A DNA stretch of 64,000 bases, taken from positions 642,619-706,618 of the forward strand of contig CP066688.1 in the NCBI GenBank assembly GCA_016432425.1. The letters run 5' to 3'. Both the position numbers and the translations under genes were made by a program. Positions 6,237 to 42,304 of the stretch are shown here, piece by piece. Origin of the DNA: Candidatus Daviesbacteria bacterium (GTDB lineage: Bacteria > Patescibacteriota > Microgenomatia > Daviesbacterales > UBA10151). Below the pieces are notes generated by a model. It was not told the origin of the DNA. It ran no database searches and worked only from the letters and a program-made list of their open reading frames with translations. The number at the start of each line of letters is the position of its first letter. Positions within the stretch are counted from its first letter, which is position 1.

Positions 6237-6248
6237 AAAAACATTTTA

Positions 6249-6347
6249 CCCTGAACATGGTGAATGGGCAAGCTTTGCTTACCCTGAACATGGTGAATGG
6301 GCAAGCTTTGCTTACCCTGAACATGGTGAATGGGCAAGCTTTGCTTA
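6249..6347. repeat. Three identical tandem copies of a 33-bp unit (CCCTGAACATGGTGAATGGGCAAGCTTTGCTTA) plus a degenerate fourth. This is a member of a dispersed repeat family.
   Basis: Exact 33-nt periodicity read directly from the sequence. The reverse complement of the unit recurs at 18254-18286. Confidence 0.9.
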
Positions 6348-6402
6348 CCTTGAGATTGAGGGATTGTCACTAATAGAAAATTTTGCTAAGATCGCTTTTG
6401 CC

Positions 6403-10977: not shown

Positions 10978-11392
10978 GATTAAAAATCTACTGCAGCGTC
11001 AACAACGCGAAGTAGAGGAAAATATTGAAAAGGTGGAAAAAGATGATCCCACCAAAGATATCGCCTTGGCGGAAAGTAGCGAGCCGGGAACTGAATCCTG
11101 GATTGCTGAAGGGCATGCCAAGGCCATTGCTATAGCTAATGAACTAAAAAATGCAGCAGGAAATATTAAGTTAGCTTTAAGTAAAATTAGACAAGGTAAA
11201 TATGGTGTTTGTGAAAAGTGTGGTAAAAATATTGAACACCAACGCTTGTTAATAATTCCCACTACCCGTTACTGCATGGCTTGTTCCAAAATTAAGCATA
11301 AGCAGAGCTTGCCATCTGGTGATGGTAAGCAGAGCTTGCCATCTAACAATGGTAAACAGAACTCCTCTGCGAATAATCTGAATCACCGCTAG
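10946..11392 (+). CDS. DksA/TraR-family C4 zinc-finger protein with a repeat-encoded C-terminal tail
   Basis: CEKCGKNIEHQRLLIIPTTRYCMAC is the DksA/TraR zinc finger. The C-terminus KQSLPSGDGKQSLPSNNGKQ is encoded by the tandem 27-bp repeat units. Confidence 0.65.
   Translation: MLNLPRKTLIRIKNLLQRQQREVEENIEKVEKDDPTKDIALAESSEPGTESWIAEGHAKAIAIANELKNAAGNIKLALSKIRQGKYGVCEKCGKNIEHQRLLIIPTTRYCMACSKIKHKQSLPSGDGKQSLPSNNGKQNSSANNLNHR
11299..11352. repeat. Two tandem 27-bp units (TAAGCAGAGCTTGCCATCTGGTGATGG and TAAGCAGAGCTTGCCATCTAACAATGG) with degenerate flanks. They belong to the same family as the repeats at 6249 and 18254.
   Basis: Read from sequence. Unit A is identical to 18287-18313. Confidence 0.85.
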
Positions 11393-12151
11393 ATGAGCCT
11401 CCCTGTAGTTTTTGAAGATGAGTTTTTACTGGTTGTTGATAAACCTCCCGGATTGGTGACTACTCCCGGCGAAACTGTCAAGAGCAAATCCTTAGCGCAG
11501 ATACTTCAGGCTGATTTTGGTATAGATTTAGAGCGGGGAGGATTAGTTCATCGCCTGGATAAAGATACTTCCGGCCTGATTTTAGTAGCCAAAAATGCTC
11601 AAATTTTGGCGAGCTTACAAAATCAGTTTAAAAGTAGACAAGTCAAAAAACAGTATTTAGCCCTAGTTCATGGCAGCTTGAATGAGACTAGGATAGTAGA
11701 AGGTAGTATTGCCCGCAATCCCGGAAATAGAGAAAAATTTACCGTTTTAGCGGAAGGTAAGGAGGCTAAAACTGAAGTAGAACCATTAAAACAATTGACA
11801 ATGGATAGTGAACAATTGACAGAGATTTTTTCTGATTTTAACAAAATTCAAATGCGCAAACTAAGTAATCTTCACTACAGTAAATTTACTTTGACCTCCT
11901 GCCGGCCCCTAACTGGACGGACCCATCAAATTAGGGTACATTTAAAATATATTGGTTTTCCAATCGTGGCAGACCAAAAATATGGAGGCCGCAAAATGAA
12001 CCGTTTGGATAATAGATGGTGTCCCCGGATGTTTTTGCATGCTCATAAGCTAGAGTTTACTCATCCGGTTAACAGGGAGTGGATCAAATTAGAAACTGAG
12101 TTGCCGAAAGACTTAAAAAAAGTGTTGAACTTATTAGAGCTTAAAGCTTAG
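11393..12151 (+). CDS. RluA-family 23S rRNA/tRNA pseudouridine synthase
   Basis: HRLDKDTSGLILVAKN carries the catalytic Asp motif, and GRTHQIRVH is present. Confidence 0.85.
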   Translation: MSLPVVFEDEFLLVVDKPPGLVTTPGETVKSKSLAQILQADFGIDLERGGLVHRLDKDTSGLILVAKNAQILASLQNQFKSRQVKKQYLALVHGSLNETRIVEGSIARNPGNREKFTVLAEGKEAKTEVEPLKQLTMDSEQLTEIFSDFNKIQMRKLSNLHYSKFTLTSCRPLTGRTHQIRVHLKYIGFPIVADQKYGGRKMNRLDNRWCPRMFLHAHKLEFTHPVNREWIKLETELPKDLKKVLNLLELKA

Positions 12152-12160
12152 TCCAAAACA

Positions 12161-13867
12161 ATGGAAAATATCTTTATACAACTGGCGATAATTCTGGGTT
12201 TATCTTCACTGCTGGGATATATCGTCAGACTGTTTGATTTGCCTTTAATTATTGCTTATCTTTTTGGGGGGCTCTTACTTTCCAGCATCTCCCTTTGGGA
12301 TATTAAAACTTTTCAAACCCTATCATTTTTGCCGGAAATTGGCATAGCTTTTGTGCTTTTTCTAGTGGGGATGGAGCTGGATTTAAGAGAAATTAAGCAG
12401 TTGGGGAGGCCCATCTTTATTGCCGGGATTCTGCAGGTAATTATTACCTCAATTGCTGGAGCAAGTTTAGCCAGATTTTTAGGACTAGGGGAATGGGATT
12501 CAATTTATTTGGGTTTAGGGCTATCTTTTTCTTCAACGATTGTGGTCGTTAAACTGTTATTAGAAAAAAAAGAGCTGTCTTCTCTATATGGCAAATTATC
12601 CGTGGGGATTTTATTGCTGGAAGATTTATTAGCGGTGTTAGTCTTGCTTTGGCTTTCCAGTGCCAGCTCTTTTTTAAATTTAGGTTTAACTAACAGCTTA
12701 CCTATAGTTGCTTATTTAGCCAAAACTGCTGTGTTGTTTTTGACAGCATTACTATTTAACCGTTACTTAATCCCCAAAATTTTTAAGGCAGTATCGCTTT
12801 CTTCTGAACTACTGTTTTTAACCGCTCTATCCTGGTGTTTTATCTATGTTTCCCTTTCTGTAGTGCTGGGTTTCTCCATTGTGGTGGGGGCCTTTTTAGC
12901 CGGTATTACTTTGGCCACCTCACCTTATCATTTTCAAATTCAAAGTAAAGTGAAACCCTTACGCGATTTCTTCCTCACCTTATTTTTTGTCTATCTGGGA
13001 ACACAGGTAGATTTTAATTACATGGCGTCTTCCGCCCACTTAATTTTATTTTTCACCCTCTATGCGGTGTTGCTTAAGCCCATTATATTTTTGTTAATTT
13101 TAGGGACTTTTGGATTTAGAAAGCATACCATGTTCCAGGTAGCGATAAATTTATCCCAAATTTCCGAGTTTTCCCTGATTATTATCTTGGTGGGATTGCA
13201 AGCTAATTTAGTCTCACCACAATCTTTAACCATTATTTCCGCGGCGGCAGTTTTGTCCATGATTATTTCTTCCCTAGAGATTGCGCATGCCAATATAATT
13301 TATAAATTGTTATCAGGAGTAATCACTTTTTTTGAAAGAAAAAATTTCCACTTTCCTCTGGAAGGGGAGCGAGATGGAGAAGTGAGCGACCATGTAGTGT
13401 TAATCGGGGGGCATCGTGTCGGTGGAGAAGTGGTTAAATTTTTACAAAAGGAAAAAATTGCCACGGTAGTGCTGGATTTTAATCCCCGCCAAGTAGAAGC
13501 TCTAAAAAAAGCTAAAGTCAGGGCAGTTTATGGGGACATGACTGATCCGGAAATGTTGGATAGTTTAAACTTACCCAGTGCCAAACTACTAATTTCTACT
13601 TCTCCCAGCGTGGATGATAACTTGTTTTTACTCTCGCAGCTTAAAGAACGCAAATTAGATTTACCGGTGATTATGAGAGCGGAGACAATTGTAGAGGCCG
13701 GACAGTTGTATAAAAAAGGAGCTGATCTGGTTATTTTGCCGGAGATTTTAGCCGGAGATTTTTTGGTGGAAAAATTAAGTACCCATTTTTATGATAAAGG
13801 TTTTTTTAAAGACCGCGCCAGAATTGAACTGGAAAAACTCTCGCACAGCTCTTTAAGCTTAGACTAA
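12161..13867 (+). CDS. CPA2-family cation/proton antiporter with a C-terminal RCK/TrkA-N domain (KefB/KefC-like)
   Basis: About 12 TM helices are followed by VLIGGHRVGGEVVKFL...VVLDFNP...VYGDMTD, a Rossmann-type TrkA-N domain. Confidence 0.8.
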   Translation: MENIFIQLAIILGLSSLLGYIVRLFDLPLIIAYLFGGLLLSSISLWDIKTFQTLSFLPEIGIAFVLFLVGMELDLREIKQLGRPIFIAGILQVIITSIAGASLARFLGLGEWDSIYLGLGLSFSSTIVVVKLLLEKKELSSLYGKLSVGILLLEDLLAVLVLLWLSSASSFLNLGLTNSLPIVAYLAKTAVLFLTALLFNRYLIPKIFKAVSLSSELLFLTALSWCFIYVSLSVVLGFSIVVGAFLAGITLATSPYHFQIQSKVKPLRDFFLTLFFVYLGTQVDFNYMASSAHLILFFTLYAVLLKPIIFLLILGTFGFRKHTMFQVAINLSQISEFSLIIILVGLQANLVSPQSLTIISAAAVLSMIISSLEIAHANIIYKLLSGVITFFERKNFHFPLEGERDGEVSDHVVLIGGHRVGGEVVKFLQKEKIATVVLDFNPRQVEALKKAKVRAVYGDMTDPEMLDSLNLPSAKLLISTSPSVDDNLFLLSQLKERKLDLPVIMRAETIVEAGQLYKKGADLVILPEILAGDFLVEKLSTHFYDKGFFKDRARIELEKLSHSSLSLD

Positions 13868-18195: not shown

Positions 18196-18253
18196 TGGCC
18201 AAAAGTATAGAAGTAAGGTAGTTGACTTGTCAATATTTTGGCCATTATTTGGG

Positions 18254-18346
18254 TAAGCAAAGCTTGCCCATTCACCATGTTCAGGGTAAGCAGAGCTTGC
18301 CATCTGGTGATGGTAAGCAGAGCTTGCCTCCGCCAGCTGGCGGATG
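18254..18346. repeat. Three tandem units (33, 27 and 33 nt) with a shared head TAAGCA[A/G]AGCTTGCC and variable, partly palindromic tails. Unit 1 is the reverse complement of the 6249 unit.
   Basis: Read from sequence. The tail CCGCCAGCTGGCGG is a perfect palindrome. The array lies in the divergent intergenic region between the TPR gene and yebC. Confidence 0.85.
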
Positions 18347-18363
18347 TTAAACTTATCGTTGTC

Positions 18364-19125
18364 ATGAGCGGACATTCTAAGTGGTCAACTATCAAGCGGG
18401 CTAAAGGGGCGGCTGATGTTAAACGCGGTTTAACATTTACCAAGATGGCTAATGCTATTACTATTGCTGCCAAATTAGGGGGTAGCGGTGATCCGGCAGC
18501 TAACCCCAGATTGCGGACAGCTTTGGATGAAGCGAGGGCGGTTAATATGCCCAAAGATAATATTGCTCGGGCTATTGATCGGGGTCTGGGTAAGGGTGGT
18601 AGCGGCACGCTGGAAGAGGTGGTTTATGAAGGATTTGGTCCGGGCAGAGTGGCTTTTATAGTAGAAGGAGTAACTGATAACAGATTGCGGACTAATCAGG
18701 AAATTAAAAGTTTTTTTGAGCGCAATGGCGGTACCCTGGGAAATCCGGGAACAGTGGGGTATATGTTTGATAAATTAGGAGAGATTAAAGTTACGGGAAA
18801 AGGTGGAGCTAGAGACAATGAAATTTTAAAACTAATTGATTTGGGAGCAGAAGATGTAGAAGATTATGAAGAAGAAAATATACAAAGGTATTTAGTATAT
18901 GTACAAAGCCCAGAATTAAATACTATGGGTATAAAAATTACTCAAGCTGGATTTACAATTGAAAGCCAAAATTTAATGATGAAACCCAAGGTTTTGCAGG
19001 AAGTAACAGAGCCGGAAATAGCCAAAAGGGTACTGGAGTTTGCAGAGAAGCTGGAAGGTCATGATGATATCCAAAAAGTCTATGCCAATTTTGATATTCC
19101 CGACAATCTTTTGGAGGGAAGTTAG
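18364..19125 (+). CDS. yebC: YebC/PmpR-family transcriptional regulatory protein
   Basis: MSGHSKWSTIKRAKG is the canonical YebC N-terminus. The start was set at 18364 rather than the ORF-track 18238. Confidence 0.88.
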   Translation: MSGHSKWSTIKRAKGAADVKRGLTFTKMANAITIAAKLGGSGDPAANPRLRTALDEARAVNMPKDNIARAIDRGLGKGGSGTLEEVVYEGFGPGRVAFIVEGVTDNRLRTNQEIKSFFERNGGTLGNPGTVGYMFDKLGEIKVTGKGGARDNEILKLIDLGAEDVEDYEEENIQRYLVYVQSPELNTMGIKITQAGFTIESQNLMMKPKVLQEVTEPEIAKRVLEFAEKLEGHDDIQKVYANFDIPDNLLEGS

Positions 19126-19724: not shown

Positions 19725-20500
19725 AAGATATCACCTGGGGGGTGTCCCAGCTTGACACCTAAGGATAAGTAGCTTACCATGAATTCATGCCAGGTAGAAA
19801 AACTCCCCTTGTTACAGATGAGATTTATCATGTTTATAACAGAGGCATAAATAGACAGCCCACTTTTACCACTAAAAAGGAATATCAAAGAGCAATGTTG
19901 GCTCTTAAGTTTTATAAAGTTGCCAATCCACCGGTTAGATTGTCTAAATTTTTAGAATCTGATAAAGAGCGTCAGGCTGAAATTTTAAAAATGATGGATC
20001 AGGGGGAAAAATTAGTGGAGATTCTTTGTTTTTGCCTAATGCCGAATCACTTTCATTTCCTATTAAAACAGAAAAAGGAGGGTGGAATCTCGAAATTCTT
20101 AGGGAATTTCCAAAATAGTTATACCCGTTATTTTAACACTCTAAACGAAAGAGATGGTTCATTATTTTTAGACCAGTTTAAAGCCAAAAGGATAGAAACT
20201 GACGAACAACTCATTCATGTATCAAGATATATTCATTTAAATCCTTACACAGGTTTTGCAGTAAAATCCTTTAAGGAGTTAGAAAAGTATCCCTGGTCAT
20301 CATTCCCGAGTTACCTTACAGGTGATAATAGTTTTATAGAACCTGATTTAGTATTAGGAACGTTTAAAGGGGTTGGAGATTATAGAGAATTTGTTTTAGA
20401 CCAGGCTAATTATCAAAGAGAACTAAAGTTTATTGAGCATCTCCTTTTAGAATAATCCCTAGGTGCCTGCCTATGCCACCCCCCAGGTGTCAAATTAGTA
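19725..20500 (+). mobile_element. IS200/IS605-family (REP-associated tyrosine transposase-like) element flanked by 13-bp inverted repeats
   Basis: CACCTGGGGGGTG at 19733-19745 and CACCCCCCAGGTG at 20480-20492 are reverse complements. Small hairpins are also present (GGTGTC...GACACC). Confidence 0.6.
19787..20455 (+). CDS. Y1 HUH transposase (IS200-like / RAYT, Transposase_17 family)
   Basis: YHVYNRG near the N-terminus, the HUH motif LMPNHFHFLL, and the catalytic-Tyr region VSRYIHLNP. The protein is 222 aa, typical of the family. Confidence 0.8.
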   Translation: MPGRKTPLVTDEIYHVYNRGINRQPTFTTKKEYQRAMLALKFYKVANPPVRLSKFLESDKERQAEILKMMDQGEKLVEILCFCLMPNHFHFLLKQKKEGGISKFLGNFQNSYTRYFNTLNERDGSLFLDQFKAKRIETDEQLIHVSRYIHLNPYTGFAVKSFKELEKYPWSSFPSYLTGDNSFIEPDLVLGTFKGVGDYREFVLDQANYQRELKFIEHLLLE

Positions 20501-35850: not shown

Positions 35851-36817
35851 ATTATTAGAGAAGTTTGCCATTAGACACTTAGGTAGTAACGTTTTGACAA
35901 TTTCAGAACTTAAAATATCCTCTCTTTCCATAAAAAAACATCTCTTAATTACCACTAAAGATAATAATCTATATTTGGTTTCACAATTTTCTAACAAGGA
36001 CAAGTTGTCTTTCGCTAATTTTATCAACACCCAAACTTTTCTAGATAAGCACCGAATAAGAGTACCTTCGGTTTTAGCTAAGGATAAAAGGAAGCTGCTA
36101 TTTATTCAAAAATATTTAGGCGATCTATCTCTATATAAATTCGTTTCGTCTCGAGATATTAGTAGTCATGATATAGTTAAAATTTATCAAAAAGTTATTA
36201 ATCTTTTGATAGACGCTCAACTTATTCGGGACAAATCCTGTATAGCGTTTGAGAAAGAGTTTGGATTGGATAGGTTAATAGCTGAATACAATATTTTTGT
36301 TAAGCCTTATTTAATAGATAATCTATGGAAAAATAAGTTAAATAAAATACAAAAGGTAGAATTTAAACAATTCTATCAAAAATTAGCTCAAATTTTAGCA
36401 GAAGTTCCTAAAGTTTTTTGTTTTAGAGACTTTCAGTCTACGAATTTGATTTTAGATAAAGATTCAAATGTTTTTGTAATAGACTTTCAAGGTGCTAGAT
36501 TGGCCTTCCCGCAGTATGATTTAGCTTCGCTGTTAGAGGATAATTACATAATTTTGTCTCAAAAGGCTAGAAATTTATTACTTGACTACTATATGAAAGA
36601 ATACCAGAAAAAATCAGGCACAAAAATTAATGTTGAAGAATTTAAAAAAATCTATCGTCTGGCTACTATTCAAAGAAAGCTTCATGATTTGGCAATTTTT
36701 GTTCGGGCAAAAGTTAAAGAAAATAACGATTATTTTATGAAATATATACCTGAAAATATGGCAAGATTGACAGTTTTACTTCAAAATGAAGGATTAGATT
36801 TTAATCTCAATTCTTAG
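35843..36817 (+). CDS. Aminoglycoside-phosphotransferase-fold (APH/choline-kinase family) small-molecule kinase
   Basis: VIDFQGARLAFPQYDLASLLED is the catalytic loop / DFG-like region of APH-fold kinases. It overlaps the HAD gene by 8 bp. Confidence 0.7.
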   Translation: MYKLLEKFAIRHLGSNVLTISELKISSLSIKKHLLITTKDNNLYLVSQFSNKDKLSFANFINTQTFLDKHRIRVPSVLAKDKRKLLFIQKYLGDLSLYKFVSSRDISSHDIVKIYQKVINLLIDAQLIRDKSCIAFEKEFGLDRLIAEYNIFVKPYLIDNLWKNKLNKIQKVEFKQFYQKLAQILAEVPKVFCFRDFQSTNLILDKDSNVFVIDFQGARLAFPQYDLASLLEDNYIILSQKARNLLLDYYMKEYQKKSGTKINVEEFKKIYRLATIQRKLHDLAIFVRAKVKENNDYFMKYIPENMARLTVLLQNEGLDFNLNS

Positions 36818-37385
36818 GATAAATAAAAACTGCCCGGCAAGTCCAAATCTTTTCAAAGTCTGAATAATTTATTTTTATCTTTTGACCAAGTCTTTCTTTA
36901 TCGTCTGGATCATTTACATAAAAGCCTTGATTATCATAACCGATCAGGACTACTAAATGCCCGGAGCCTCCCTGTTTTAACCTTCTTGGAACAGAGATTA
37001 TTATTGGGTGATTTTTATCCAACTCTACTTTTAAAGTAAATAAACTTTCAGCTAGTTGTTCTTGCTGCATAATCTCTAAATCTGCTTGATCAAAACCTCG
37101 TTCCTGCAATTTTTCCTGTGCTTCTTGATTAACATTCCAACTTCTGGTAATTGCCTTAAACCCTAGATTTTTTGCTAATAAGGCGAGAGAGTGATGGTAC
37201 CAACCTACTCCCTCCAAGTAACCGTTAATTTTCAGTCCTTTTTTGTATAAATCATCAATAGATAAATTAATTGGCTGGTAAAAATCCATAACCATCTTAA
37301 GGGCAACTATTCCACAAGCTTTATCTTGCCAATCCGGATTTTTTGTATCTTTAATTTGAGAGTAATATGGAACATCTAAAATCAT
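36807..37385 (-). CDS. Peptidase C39-like (papain-fold) domain protein
   Basis: VPYYSQ...W...KACGIVALKMV...H matches the C39_2-like Cys/His arrangement. Confidence 0.55.
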   Translation of the reverse strand: MILDVPYYSQIKDTKNPDWQDKACGIVALKMVMDFYQPINLSIDDLYKKGLKINGYLEGVGWYHHSLALLAKNLGFKAITRSWNVNQEAQEKLQERGFDQADLEIMQQEQLAESLFTLKVELDKNHPIIISVPRRLKQGGSGHLVVLIGYDNQGFYVNDPDDKERLGQKIKINYSDFEKIWTCRAVFIYPKN

Positions 37386-38017
37386 GCCAGTATTTTTAAC
37401 CTCCTAATACCGTCACCCATTTGTTTATTATATGAAAAAACTTCTAACTCTGCTGGGAATTGGCTATTTTTAATACTGTCTTGATGAATTCCCTTAATCG
37501 GAGTTAAAGAGCTGGAATGGGCGTAAGTGATCTCCTCATTTTGACTGTCTAAAATTATTACTACATGAGGGATTTCTTCTTTGCTGTTTAATTTAATTAA
37601 ATCCCCAGGCTGAATTTGGGAAAAATCCTCTACTGGATTGCTAAATTCCTCTGAGGTGAGGATGGCCACATTAGTTTTAGAGGCAGGCGGAAAACCTGCT
37701 TCTTCCATCCCCCCTTGGCCAATTTTTTTTAGGAGGTAATCTAATAAATAATAAACAAATCCGGAACAGTCTATCCCCAGCTGGTTTTGTTCCATGAATT
37801 TTCTAATTTCTTCTACTGAAGCCTGGTTTAAATCAAAATTTTGCTCCCTGGCTATTTCCAGAGTATTTTTAATTAACTTCTCTGGAGAGGATTTGCCATA
37901 CTTTCTTCTATCAGGCTGAAACGGAATATTAATACGGTAAGGAGTGAAAACCTGTTTCCCCCCTAAGGGTAGGATAAATTGTTGGTAAGCTTGTTTTAAA
38001 ATTGAAGCGTGATCCAT
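37382..38017 (-). CDS. NlpC/P60-like (C40) peptidase-fold protein
   Basis: LGIDCSGFVYYLL is the NlpC/P60 catalytic Cys motif, with a His downstream (IPHVVIILD...YAHSS). Confidence 0.55.
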   Translation of the reverse strand: MDHASILKQAYQQFILPLGGKQVFTPYRINIPFQPDRRKYGKSSPEKLIKNTLEIAREQNFDLNQASVEEIRKFMEQNQLGIDCSGFVYYLLDYLLKKIGQGGMEEAGFPPASKTNVAILTSEEFSNPVEDFSQIQPGDLIKLNSKEEIPHVVIILDSQNEEITYAHSSSLTPIKGIHQDSIKNSQFPAELEVFSYNKQMGDGIRRLKILA

Positions 38018-38070: not shown

Positions 38071-40173
<2,103 letters not shown>

Positions 40174-40257
40174 TTAGTCTATTGGCGGTATTGTTTTTTA
40201 TAAGTACTGTCCACCAACTTGACTATGGGCTTATTAAGGAGTAAAATATTGTAAATT

Positions 40258-41001
40258 ATGTTAAGACGCTGGATCGAACAACAAGAAGTAACTGGTAACC
40301 TTAATGCTGTTAAAGATGGACAAGATCTCCTAGGTAAATATGGAGATGTATCTTTAGATAACGAGGATAAAATACCTACTTTAGTTAGTAGCCCAAAACA
40401 ACCTGCCGTTATAGATTTAGAAACAGAATGGCTAATAAAAGCAAATAGATTAGCATTTCTTTATGCCAAAGAATTGGGTCAATCAAGAGAACAATATATA
40501 GATTATTTGCCTAAATTTGAGCCCCAACCGGAAAGTTATAGATATAGATTTTACATACCAGCTATAGTCCAAGTTCCTCAAGGCAAGTTAACTCTTGTAA
40601 GGATGTTGGATATTCTAGGAGTTACCAATTATTTATTAAACCTTAGAGATATAAAAGATTGGCAAAAAGACCCACAAAAGTTTAAAACTCCAAATAAACC
40701 TTATACAACTTATCTCCATGATGGTTTAATAAACCTAGGTAGGACTCCAAGAGATGTTAGATCATCTTTAGTTTACGGCGAAAGAGGAGGGACTGTTTTT
40801 GATGGTTTGGCACTACTGGCTCAAGATCCTGATATATTAAAAAATCATTATCTGGATTTACCTGGCTCTCAATATGGGTCTGGCGGCGTTCCGTTTCTGG
40901 GCGGTTGGGGTGCTAGGCCGGGGCTCCGCTACTTTCGGGATGACAGTGTCGGTCCGAAAGGTGGTTCTGTGGTTGCGGGAAGAAATATTGTAACTAAGTA
41001 A
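40258..41001 (+). CDS. Hypothetical protein whose last approximately 32 codons form a DGR-type variable region (putative diversified ligand-binding protein)
   Basis: The 3' 96 nt (40882-40977) match a downstream repeat (41324-41419), with mismatches almost exclusively at adenines of the downstream copy. An SD (AAGGAG) lies upstream of the ATG. Confidence 0.6.
   Translation: MLRRWIEQQEVTGNLNAVKDGQDLLGKYGDVSLDNEDKIPTLVSSPKQPAVIDLETEWLIKANRLAFLYAKELGQSREQYIDYLPKFEPQPESYRYRFYIPAIVQVPQGKLTLVRMLDILGVTNYLLNLRDIKDWQKDPQKFKTPNKPYTTYLHDGLINLGRTPRDVRSSLVYGERGGTVFDGLALLAQDPDILKNHYLDLPGSQYGSGGVPFLGGWGARPGLRYFRDDSVGPKGGSVVAGRNIVTK
40882..40977 (+). repeat. DGR variable repeat (VR) candidate
   Basis: Base-by-base comparison with 41324-41419 over 96 aligned positions gives 28 mismatches. 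In 25 of them the other copy has A where this copy has G, C or T. Confidence 0.7.
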
Positions 41002-41323
41002 TTGGACTTTGACCCTTTTGGCATCTTGATTTTTGGTTTCCAAATTTGTTAAATTATTTCTGAAATTAGGTTAATGAATCCTTAGGCTTTCAGCTTTAGG
41101 GTCACCGAAATCTTCTTTAAGACTAAGAAATCACCAGAGTTTTGTTGAAAATACTTTTAACAAAAGCGTGTGAGAAATTCTTAAGGTACTCCGTGTTTTT
41201 TCCTTTGATCTGCTGGTTGGCGGACGATGAAATTCAGTGGTGAGAATGTTAAGCGAAGCTTGCAAACTTCGTTTGTCAAACCACGGTGGGGTTTTTGTGC
41301 GGGGAGAGACACATAATAAGTCT

Positions 41324-41419
41324 GACAGCGTTCCGTATCTGAACGATTGGAATGATAGACCGAAGCTCAACTACAATCGGGATGACAATGCCAATCCGAA
41401 CTATGGTTCTGTAGTTGCG
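41324..41419 (+). repeat. DGR template repeat (TR) candidate. It is A-rich at the positions that vary in VR, and lies inside the spurious-looking ORF 41237..41569.
   Basis: Same alignment. This copy retains A at all 25 A-type mismatch positions. Confidence 0.7.
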
Positions 41420-41539
41420 ATAGTATCTTTTGAATTTTTAAAGTATCTTAACCAGCCTAATTTTAACCAATCACTACAATCTTATTTAGGTTATTTATCT
41501 CATGCAAATTCTTATCGTTTAACTAATAAATTAATAAGC

Positions 41540-42205
41540 TCAGTTCGGTTTTGGCATTTTCAGCATTAAATATTCCAAAATAGCCCGTTGGTTAACATTT
41601 TGCTTAAACCATTTTTTAGCCTCAAAAAGGGTCTTTAAAAACTGGGTAGCAGGTTCCGGATTGGTAGTTAGTTGATCGCGAAAATAAAAAATTAATCCAT
41701 CTAAAAACTCTCCCCGCTCTTCCAGTTTTTCAATATATTTAAATTGTTCTTCCAGTGAGGATTTTAATAATTTTTCTATATCTTTTTTATAATCCACCCC
41801 GTAGGTGGATTCAGTTGGCACCTTGTCTTTTATTGGATATTTTCTGATGATTTCACAGCGTGACAAAATAGTTGGTAAAAAATAACTCTCAGAGTTGGCA
41901 CCGAGAATTACCAAACCACTTTCTGGCAGCTCCTCGAGAGTTTTTAATAAAGTATTTTGGGCCACTTGAGTCAGCGTGGCAGCATCTTCTAAAACAGCTA
42001 CTTTGCCCTTAGCCTGGACAGGCTTAAAAGCAAAATGTTCTTTAATTTTTTTAGCTTCATTAATGCCCAGTTTGGAATCTGCGGGAATAAAAAGTAGATC
42101 CGGATGGTTTCGATTAATATTTAAGGAGGCAAGAATATTGTCAATCTCCCCTATTCTTGCTTGGGGATCGCCAGCCAGCAAAATTTTAGCTACCATATTT
42201 CGCAT
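41540..42205 (-). CDS. holB: DNA polymerase III delta-prime subunit-like (clamp-loader AAA+ lid/sensor region)
   Basis: NTLLKTLEELP and PTILSRC are sensor motifs characteristic of HolB/DnaX-family proteins. The protein is short at 221 aa. Confidence 0.65.
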   Translation of the reverse strand: MRNMVAKILLAGDPQARIGEIDNILASLNINRNHPDLLFIPADSKLGINEAKKIKEHFAFKPVQAKGKVAVLEDAATLTQVAQNTLLKTLEELPESGLVILGANSESYFLPTILSRCEIIRKYPIKDKVPTESTYGVDYKKDIEKLLKSSLEEQFKYIEKLEERGEFLDGLIFYFRDQLTTNPEPATQFLKTLFEAKKWFKQNVNQRAILEYLMLKMPKPN

Positions 42206-42304
42206 TCTAATTGGGAATCAAGGAAAAATCAATGAAACTAATTGACACTTTGCATTGATTTTGAGCATAATGAAATTAATCCGCTTGAGGGCGGAAAATT
42301 GTCT

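Follow-up and report, generated by a model that had tools for sequence, protein, structure and literature searches.

A stretch of 64,000 nucleotides from the genome of a Candidatus Daviesbacteria bacterium, a very small inhabitant of groundwater (contig CP066688.1, positions 642,619 to 706,618 of the forward strand; hereafter the window, whose own numbering is used throughout) carries a cassette with the two repeats of a diversity-generating retroelement (DGR). We read the interval 41001-41569, with a probability of roughly 0.6, as the remains of a complete DGR whose reverse transcriptase (RT) and accessory (avd) genes were deleted and whose variable repeat (VR) is frozen. The cassette thus belongs, in decayed form, to a system already known and is no new one. 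Because the window is collinear with complete relatives up to 41457 and again from 41459, a deletion of about 1.26 kb very probably removed both proteins here and left the final 9 codons of avd joined to the final 36 of the RT gene.

The repeat pair and the deletion scar

The two copies of a 100-nt direct repeat with 76% identity (blastn E 4e-16), the VR and the template repeat (TR), form the core of the cassette (Table 1). They differ at 24 positions, 21 of which are TR adenines. In all, 21 of the 28 TR adenines are altered in the VR (16 A>G, 3 A>T, 2 A>C) as against 3 of the 72 other positions, an adenine specificity with a Fisher p of 9e-13. No additional TR or VR copy was found by blastn in the window. 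The protein encoded by the target gene, which ends with the VR, has 33 homologues of 166-260 aa with a conserved scaffold in common; their hypervariable columns lie within the C-terminal 40 residues and coincide with the AAY codons of the TR. An even A>N spectrum is usually quoted for DGRs. In most VR/TR pairs of the family, whose loci are designated here by L numbers, A>G makes up 60-85% of adenine substitutions (window, L005, L009, L012, L013, L019, L026), the exception being L025 with A>T and A>C only.

The preliminary description of this DNA had noted that neither an initiation of mutagenic homing (IMH) element nor a hairpin follows the VR and that the homology stops at ...GGTTCTGTRGTTGCG. 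This is where the VR/TR homology terminates, and we found no hairpin 3' of the VR in the window or in the complete relatives. The comparison of the two 3' ends that had been proposed revealed a shared, A-poor block of 15 nt, GGTTCNGTNGTTGCG, which is conserved family-wide; differences discriminating an IMH from an IMH* were found neither in the window nor in complete relatives. Because none was seen anywhere in the family, complete members included, their absence is not evidence of decay.

The mismatches at non-A positions cluster in the last variable codon before GGTTC (window 41402-41404 in the TR, 40960-40962 in the VR; TAT to GGT). The same codon of the complete relative L009 is changed from TTT to GGT, and the VR reads GGT GGT TC at both loci. 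Rather than arising by random decay, these non-A changes may reflect a slip that recurs or a change under selection.

Relatives of the cassette occur in Candidatus Daviesbacteria and related Candidate Phyla Radiation (CPR) metagenomes. Their canonical order is target gene with VR, a spacer of about 300 nt, TR, avd on the reverse strand, and RT. A bAvd gene (PF22296) and then an RVT_1 gene (316-351 aa) follow the TR in L005, L009, L012, L013 and L033, while L019, L023 and L027 show the canonical order as far as their contigs reach (L019, counted as complete with avd only; L023, with avd and the start of RT). In all 8 of these 8 complete relatives avd and RT start 10-100 nt from the TR. Their VR/TR pairs share with the window's pair the adenine specificity and the A>G bias and have 0-3 non-A mismatches; the VR-to-TR spacing is 391-430 nt, compared with 442 nt in the window. 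The RTs (PF00078) and bAvd proteins (PF22296) of the relatives belong to an abundant clade, with more than 6,000 close RT homologues in public data.

Neither a YxDD scan nor tblastn with five RTs and two Avds of relatives detected an intact RT or avd gene in the window. The only open reading frames (ORFs) with YxDD are DnaB- and GyrA-like, in agreement with the earlier statement that no ORF here has an RT motif, and the sole tblastn match is a remnant at 41429-41554. That remnant lies on the plus strand and is matched by the last 33-42 residues of the relatives' RTs with 57-58% identity (E 5e-8 to 2e-7). In a blastp comparison with 120 clade RTs, the translated RT remnant matched the extreme C-termini of 119 of them, the best reaching 78% identity over 32 aa (E 2e-12). 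The avd remnant gives a weak tblastn match (E 0.5) to the Avd C-terminus GGWIKYLKNS of relatives, and its offset from the TR is the same as in complete loci.

The nucleotide alignments place the junction between these two remnants. Positions 40990-41457 of the window are collinear with L012 (77% identity over 474 nt, E 4e-97), and L005 and L009 align in the same way. The homology with complete relatives breaks at 41457/41458 and resumes at 41459-41552, which corresponds to the 3' end of the RT gene (L005 12448-12540). The scar thus joins the ends of avd and RT where complete relatives carry both genes. These results uphold one of the two readings offered earlier, a decayed or orphan cassette, the other being an RT that acts in trans from elsewhere in the genome. 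The cassette is lodged between gyrB and a holB-like gene, with no intact RT or accessory gene nearby and only remnants of the two in 64 kb. The further claim that the sequence after the TR runs straight into holB did not hold, as the 120 nt in question consist of recognisable avd and RT remnants.

The cassette sequence is 100% identical over 1.5-3.4 kb in assemblies of at least six sequencing runs and in the metagenome-assembled genome (MAG), and the locus is therefore not an assembly artefact. The runs carrying it include SRR12113420, -429 and -430, two further samples, and SRR12113383 and -384. In one contig from SRR12113383 (L037) the assembly breaks inside the TR, at window position 41354, which may be chance or may reflect confusion of the assembler by the VR/TR repeat.

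An ORF at 41237-41569 is the TR frame running in frame into the RT tail; gene callers report it as a protein of 107-110 aa, and this "hypothetical protein" is an annotation artefact. The locus is best labelled as a DGR remnant. The last 9 or so codons of holB and its stop (41540-41569) overlap the end of the RT remnant on the opposite strand. Where the RT tail would have a conserved Gln codon, the plus strand reads TCA, which is the holB stop on the minus strand, and the holB C-terminus may have been remodelled after, or along with, RT loss.

Table 1. Positions of the DGR remnant, its predicted RNA elements and its neighbours in the window
Feature	Position	Strand	Details
gyrB	38071-40125	-	Upstream neighbour, divergent from target gene; 684-aa ORF with GyrB hallmark motifs
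Candidate sigma-70-like promoter of target gene, TTGACT-17-TAAAAT	40219-40247	+	Consensus match only
DGR target (variable protein) gene, 247 aa	40258-41001	+	QQG43257.1 / HYW45_03580, Candidatus Daviesbacteria bacterium MAG
VR	40878-40977	+	3' end of target gene; 24 nt before its stop
Putative DGR RNA promoter, TTGATT-17-TTAAAT	41026-41054	+	Just after target stop; proposed from conservation
Structured leader RNA (predicted)	41069-41312	+	P1 41069-41106; P2 41132-41172; P3 41193-41204 with 41301-41312; P4 41209-41223; P5 41234-41287
Near-invariant 21-nt box TTCTTRAGRTACTCCGTGTTT, predicted RNA hub	41178-41198	+	Invariant in the family members that defined it
TR	41320-41419	+	Intergenic; 91% identical to TR of complete relative L012
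Predicted TR-flanking duplex, 3' strand AGTATCTTTTGAA	41422-41434	+	Pairs with 5' half of box, 41178-41190
avd remnant, last 9 codons (GWLRYFKNS), stop mutated to Lys	41431-41457	-	tblastn, collinearity
Deletion junction	41457-41459		About 1,259 bp missing on the L005 scale (11188 to 12448); about 1,222 bp on the L012 scale
RT remnant, last 36 codons (NFNQSLQSYLGYLSHANSYRLTNKLISSVRFWHFQH) and stop	41459-41569	+	Codons 41459-41566; tblastn, blastp
holB-like gene (DNA polymerase III delta')	41540-42205	-	Downstream neighbour; PF13177 DNA_pol3_delta2, Pfam E 9.8e-23

The leader RNA and the TR clamp

The spacer of about 300 nt from the target stop to the TR is 66-77% conserved among relatives and contains invariant blocks. 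RNAalifold, applied to 12 sequences, predicted a structured leader RNA of five helical elements with 49 pairs, 30 of which show compensatory double changes. In this structure 94% of cells pair, versus 44-51% in controls whose partners were slid by 1-3 columns; the 30 pairs changed on both sides compare with 9-13 in these controls; and none of 500 shuffles reached the observed covariation score. No Rfam 15 family matched the region 40000-42300 on either strand at E<=1, and the leader RNA matched none of the RT-associated motifs that Weinberg et al. 2017 described, so far as Rfam includes them.

A box of 21 nt, TTCTTRAGRTACTCCGTGTTT, which occurs once in the window even with 3 mismatches allowed, is central to the predicted fold. 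Its 3' half is the 5' strand of the long-range helix P3, which reaches the sequence just upstream of the TR. Its 5' half is predicted to pair with the strand AGTATCTTTTGAA just past the TR. In silico, this 13-nt duplex forms 11 of its 13 pairs in the window, and between 11 and all 13 of them in 11 relatives. A G>A change in the window's box is matched by a C>T change in the post-TR strand, turning a G-C into an A-U pair; covariation of the duplex is limited to this case and to L033 (one C-G to U-G), and such support is thin because the box hardly varies and the loci were selected with it. Since both TR flanks pair with one box, the model has the TR held as a loop between two helices, which would be stacked on the box as a common hub. 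The leader RNA, the TR, the VR and both clamping helices are intact in the window, where the deletion junction lies 23 nt past the last RNA element.

A promoter for this RNA can be proposed just after the target stop. The block CTTGATTTTTGG of the putative promoter is nearly invariant in 12 family members, and the -10 element reads TACAAT or TAAAAT in relatives. The window version has 8 of 12 consensus matches, below the threshold of the sigma-70 scan, and because the scan does not call it there the leader promoter stays putative. Downstream of the TR, the window has no terminator or significant structure, the sequence folding no better than shuffles. The complete members, too, gave no conserved RNA structure 3' of the clamp, where an Avd-binding stem-loop might be sought (RNAalifold -2.6 kcal/mol, covariation term zero).

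RT-less loci and the fate of the window cassette

We collected 18 distinct family loci, found via the target protein and via the leader box. The box search matched 14 stretches in 241 million metagenome records, three of them by chance: L018, L020 and L024 were rejected as 21-mer matches inside unrelated sequence. In a genome collection the box scan returned L015 and one chance match, and the pattern HYLDLPGSQ matched no relative. Eight loci are complete (L005, L009, L012, L013, L019, L023, L027 and L033). Five keep the TR and have lost avd and RT (the window, L025, L015, L021 and L026), three keep only part of the leader (L016/17, L022 and L030), and in two the target stands alone (L007 and L031). 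RT is thus missing in cis from 10 of the 18. Decay would lead from target with TR, through target with partial leader, to target alone, with the window as one stage on this path.

Two of the other deletions are instructive. In L025 (1600-1861) the TR breaks off at ...AACTGGGG and runs straight into about residue 270 of the RT (WGIDFLGY...), and TGGGG stands on both sides of the junction, which suggests a microhomology-mediated deletion. Its VR and TR mismatch at 9 of 25 adenines and at 0 of 65 other positions. L015, L021 and L026 have a common post-TR junction that leaves about 27 nt of the avd 3' end. As the sequence after the TR is the same in all three, the RT-less state predates their divergence. 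The avd stub is followed in L015 and L026 by a strong terminator hairpin, a TTGACA/TATAAT promoter and topA, whereas the L021 contig ends 62 nt after the TR. No RT or Avd was found in the contigs of L026 (4.2 kb) or L015 (8 kb).

The repeats of this lineage nevertheless appear to have been rewritten. In a gapped alignment the TRs of L026 and L021 are only 76% identical. They differ at 19 positions with no adenine in either TR, and at 18 of these the VR of each locus carries the base of its own TR; within each VR/TR pair, 18-20 adenine positions differ. Gene conversion does not fit, because it would erase the adenine differences, and neither does independent drift, because the register of VR and TR would be lost. 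Since the VRs still track their own TRs, the only explanation we can offer from these comparisons is that mutagenic homing continued after the loss of the cis RT, with the RT supplied in trans. It has been documented that parts of DGRs can act in trans (PMC5758913) and that incomplete DGR loci can diversify (PMC10907252). L015, L021 and L026 thus provide sequence-level evidence of RT-less cassettes being rewritten, which DGR surveys that start from the RT would miss.

Some oddities of L015 may be recorded here. The locus (CAZRWL010000014.1) is labelled "uncultured Gammaproteobacteria", yet the contig has a CPR-type DGR leader and TR, and the MAG bin is therefore probably contaminated or mislabelled. 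The features concerned lie at 1-1810 of the contig, which starts inside the VR. After the TR terminator come a duplicated N-terminal fragment of topA (MNLVIVESPTKARTIGKFLGS, then a stop), a minus-strand gene, and the real topA at 1808.

The window deletion is an event independent of the L015/L021/L026 lineage, with a junction of its own, the RT tail retained and other neighbours. At complete loci, the RT-Avd complex would bind the leader-TR RNA and copy it with errors at adenines, and the adenine-mutagenised cDNA would replace the VR. The window locus is unable to diversify on its own, being without RT and Avd; their loss would be evolutionarily recent and the VR now frozen.

We lean, by a modest degree, towards the cassette being a recently inactivated, frozen relic. 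The box, otherwise invariant, has 2 substitutions here, and 2 clamp positions are unpaired. No terminator or stable hairpin follows the TR, unlike in the RT-less lineage that is apparently maintained. The decay series across the 18 family loci points the same way. The VR is identical in all contigs and in the MAG, its 90% protein cluster comprises one sequence, and at the consensus level of these assemblies no polymorphism is seen at adenine-templated sites.

Several observations weigh against a frozen relic. The window's non-A VR/TR mismatches (3 of 72) lie within the range of complete relatives, and its leader has 4 private substitutions at otherwise invariant columns, where the others have 0-5. 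The leader RNA contains window-specific compensatory pairs, and the deletion spares every conserved RNA element. The lineage of L015, L021 and L026 indicates that RT-less cassettes can keep being rewritten. The identity of the VRs may only reflect replicate samples of one clonal population, and complete relatives, too, show single-sequence protein clusters. We tried three features as clocks of decay. Non-A mismatches and private leader substitutions do not discriminate, the window being within the range of complete relatives for both. The divergence of the RT-remnant tail is unusable because the tails of complete RTs (e.g., L012) diverge as well and holB overlaps part of the remnant's tail.

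The strongest alternative, to which we assign a distinctly lower though substantial probability, is that transcription of the leader-TR RNA continues and that an RT-Avd pair with genes at another site in the 820-kb genome makes use of it, the VR being rewritten occasionally. The precedents cited above and the VRs of L015, L021 and L026, which track their own TRs after cis RT loss, speak for it. So does the anatomy of the window locus, which keeps the full leader, both clamping helices and 38 nt of native sequence 3' of the TR, compared with about 27 nt in those three loci, and whose VR/TR pair and leader are as clean as those of complete relatives. Nothing demonstrably essential was deleted, because no conserved RNA structure past the clamp was detected in complete members. 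On the other hand, six-frame tblastn and motif scans found no RT in the 41 kb before the cassette or the 22 kb after it, the VR does not vary among at least six runs, and no terminator evolved after the TR as in L015 and L026. The two box substitutions and the two unpaired clamp positions also tell against continued use. Finally, given the few stretches that the box search matched, the leader box is rare in public data, so a further member of the family cannot be taken for granted in one small genome. Among the best 120 of the more than 6,000 homologues of a relative's RT none has the HYW45 tag, a result that is uninformative rather than negative.

A broader proposal, which we make only tentatively and consider doubtful, is that RT-less target-leader-TR cassettes of the family, the window's included, persist as satellites whose structured leader, some 250 nt long, and TR-clamping box would be recognised by a remote RT-Avd. 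If so, the leader RNA, and not gene adjacency, would define which TR an RT serves, and RT-centred surveys would undercount hypervariable genes in CPR genomes.

All readings other than a frozen relic and a cassette served in trans are, even when taken together, very improbable. One is an ordinary complete DGR with its RT just outside the window, the arrangement that the preliminary description had set against orphan status, or unrecognised inside it. An RT outside is excluded because the canonical position, 10-100 nt from the TR in 8 of 8 complete relatives, is part of the window and is occupied by the fused remnants, followed by holB; inside, the searches in all six frames showed no other RT, and the probability left to this reading is slight. 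That the locus is not a DGR at all, owing to chance, an ordinary duplication or an assembly chimera, is less probable still and is ruled out by the adenine specificity, by the same hypervariable codons in 33 homologues and the same architecture beside bona fide RVT_1/bAvd genes in relatives, and by the identical sequence in independent assemblies from several runs.

Comparison with known systems and other features of the window

The family resembles the prototype DGR of the Bordetella phage BPP-1 (mtd-avd-TR-brt) in the adenine-specific flow from TR to VR, in the VR at the C-terminus of the target, and, at its complete loci, in the Avd-family accessory protein and DGR-clade RT. The predicted pairing of TR-flanking RNA segments is comparable to the avd:Sp "cPRT Stop" duplex; the BPP-1 RT-Avd-RNA complex needs that duplex, and 207 further DGRs were predicted to have one (bioRxiv 10.1101/2023.10.23.563531). 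The family differs from BPP-1 in the order of its parts (target, leader RNA, TR, avd on the reverse strand, RT) and in having the large structured RNA domain 5' of the TR and not 3'. No distinguishable IMH/IMH* pair and no hairpin after the VR were found in the family, A>G dominates the changes across it, and in the window RT and Avd are deleted. The covariation-supported leader RNA 5' of the TR offers a testable counterpart of the RNA scaffold in the BPP-1 complex.

Loci with a VR, and sometimes a TR, that lack an intact RT have been described in Thiohalocapsa sp. PB-PSB1 (Dore et al. 2024, PMC10907252). The RT clade and target types are different there, and the disruptions are linked to transposons and structural variants (PMC10907252), whereas in the window the deletion is clean and internal, remnants of both genes survive, and the TR is local, not remote. 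The locus shares with the DGRs of CPR/Patescibacteria the clade of the relatives' RTs and bAvd proteins, and its organism, a Daviesbacteria MAG. It differs from them in a target family with no Pfam domain or significant structural match and in a leader RNA with no Rfam family. The locus leaves the DGR concept unchanged and its value is incremental: it is an example, dated by its anatomy, of the death of a DGR in streamlined CPR genomes through a clean internal deletion that spares the RNA parts.

The cassette is found at different chromosomal sites in different genomes. In L005 and L009 the DGR target follows a yebC/TACO1 gene, directly or one gene after. The window has a yebC/TACO1-like ORF (18238-19125) with no DGR adjoining it, and its cassette lies instead between gyrB and holB. 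Among other relatives, the site is between rpsO and pnp in L031 and upstream of topA in L015 and L026. Judged from these positions, the cassette, or its surroundings, appears to have moved repeatedly. The gyrB label of the upstream neighbour is one that we take from established knowledge of GyrB motifs, read in the translation of the ORF.

The target protein itself contains no Pfam domain. Its AlphaFold2 (AF2) model has a pLDDT of 78.9, with residues 50-247 confident, and structure comparison gave no significant fold match and no more than weak hints of a C-type-lectin-like fold. Among its homologues, the one in L030 is closest. A consensus scan returned a promoter candidate with 10 of 12 consensus matches, 11 nt upstream of the ATG at 40258.

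Elsewhere in the window, a 33-nt unit, TTACCCTGAACATGGTGAATGGGCAAGCTTTGC, occurs in 3.3 tandem copies with 98% identity at 6246-6353 (+), with a further copy 12 kb away at 18266-18288 (-). The unit is read as "YPEHGEWASFA" repeats inside called ORFs. A gene at 19787-20455 (+) encodes an IS200-like Y1 transposase (PF01797, E 5.5e-10) that resembles the transposases associated with repetitive extragenic palindromic (REP) elements (RAYT), and the 33-nt units and this gene may be REP-like elements with their RAYT. Just upstream of gyrB, a Peptidase_C39-like gene (E 3e-16) stands beside an NlpC/P60-like gene (E 5e-6) at 36807-38017 (-).

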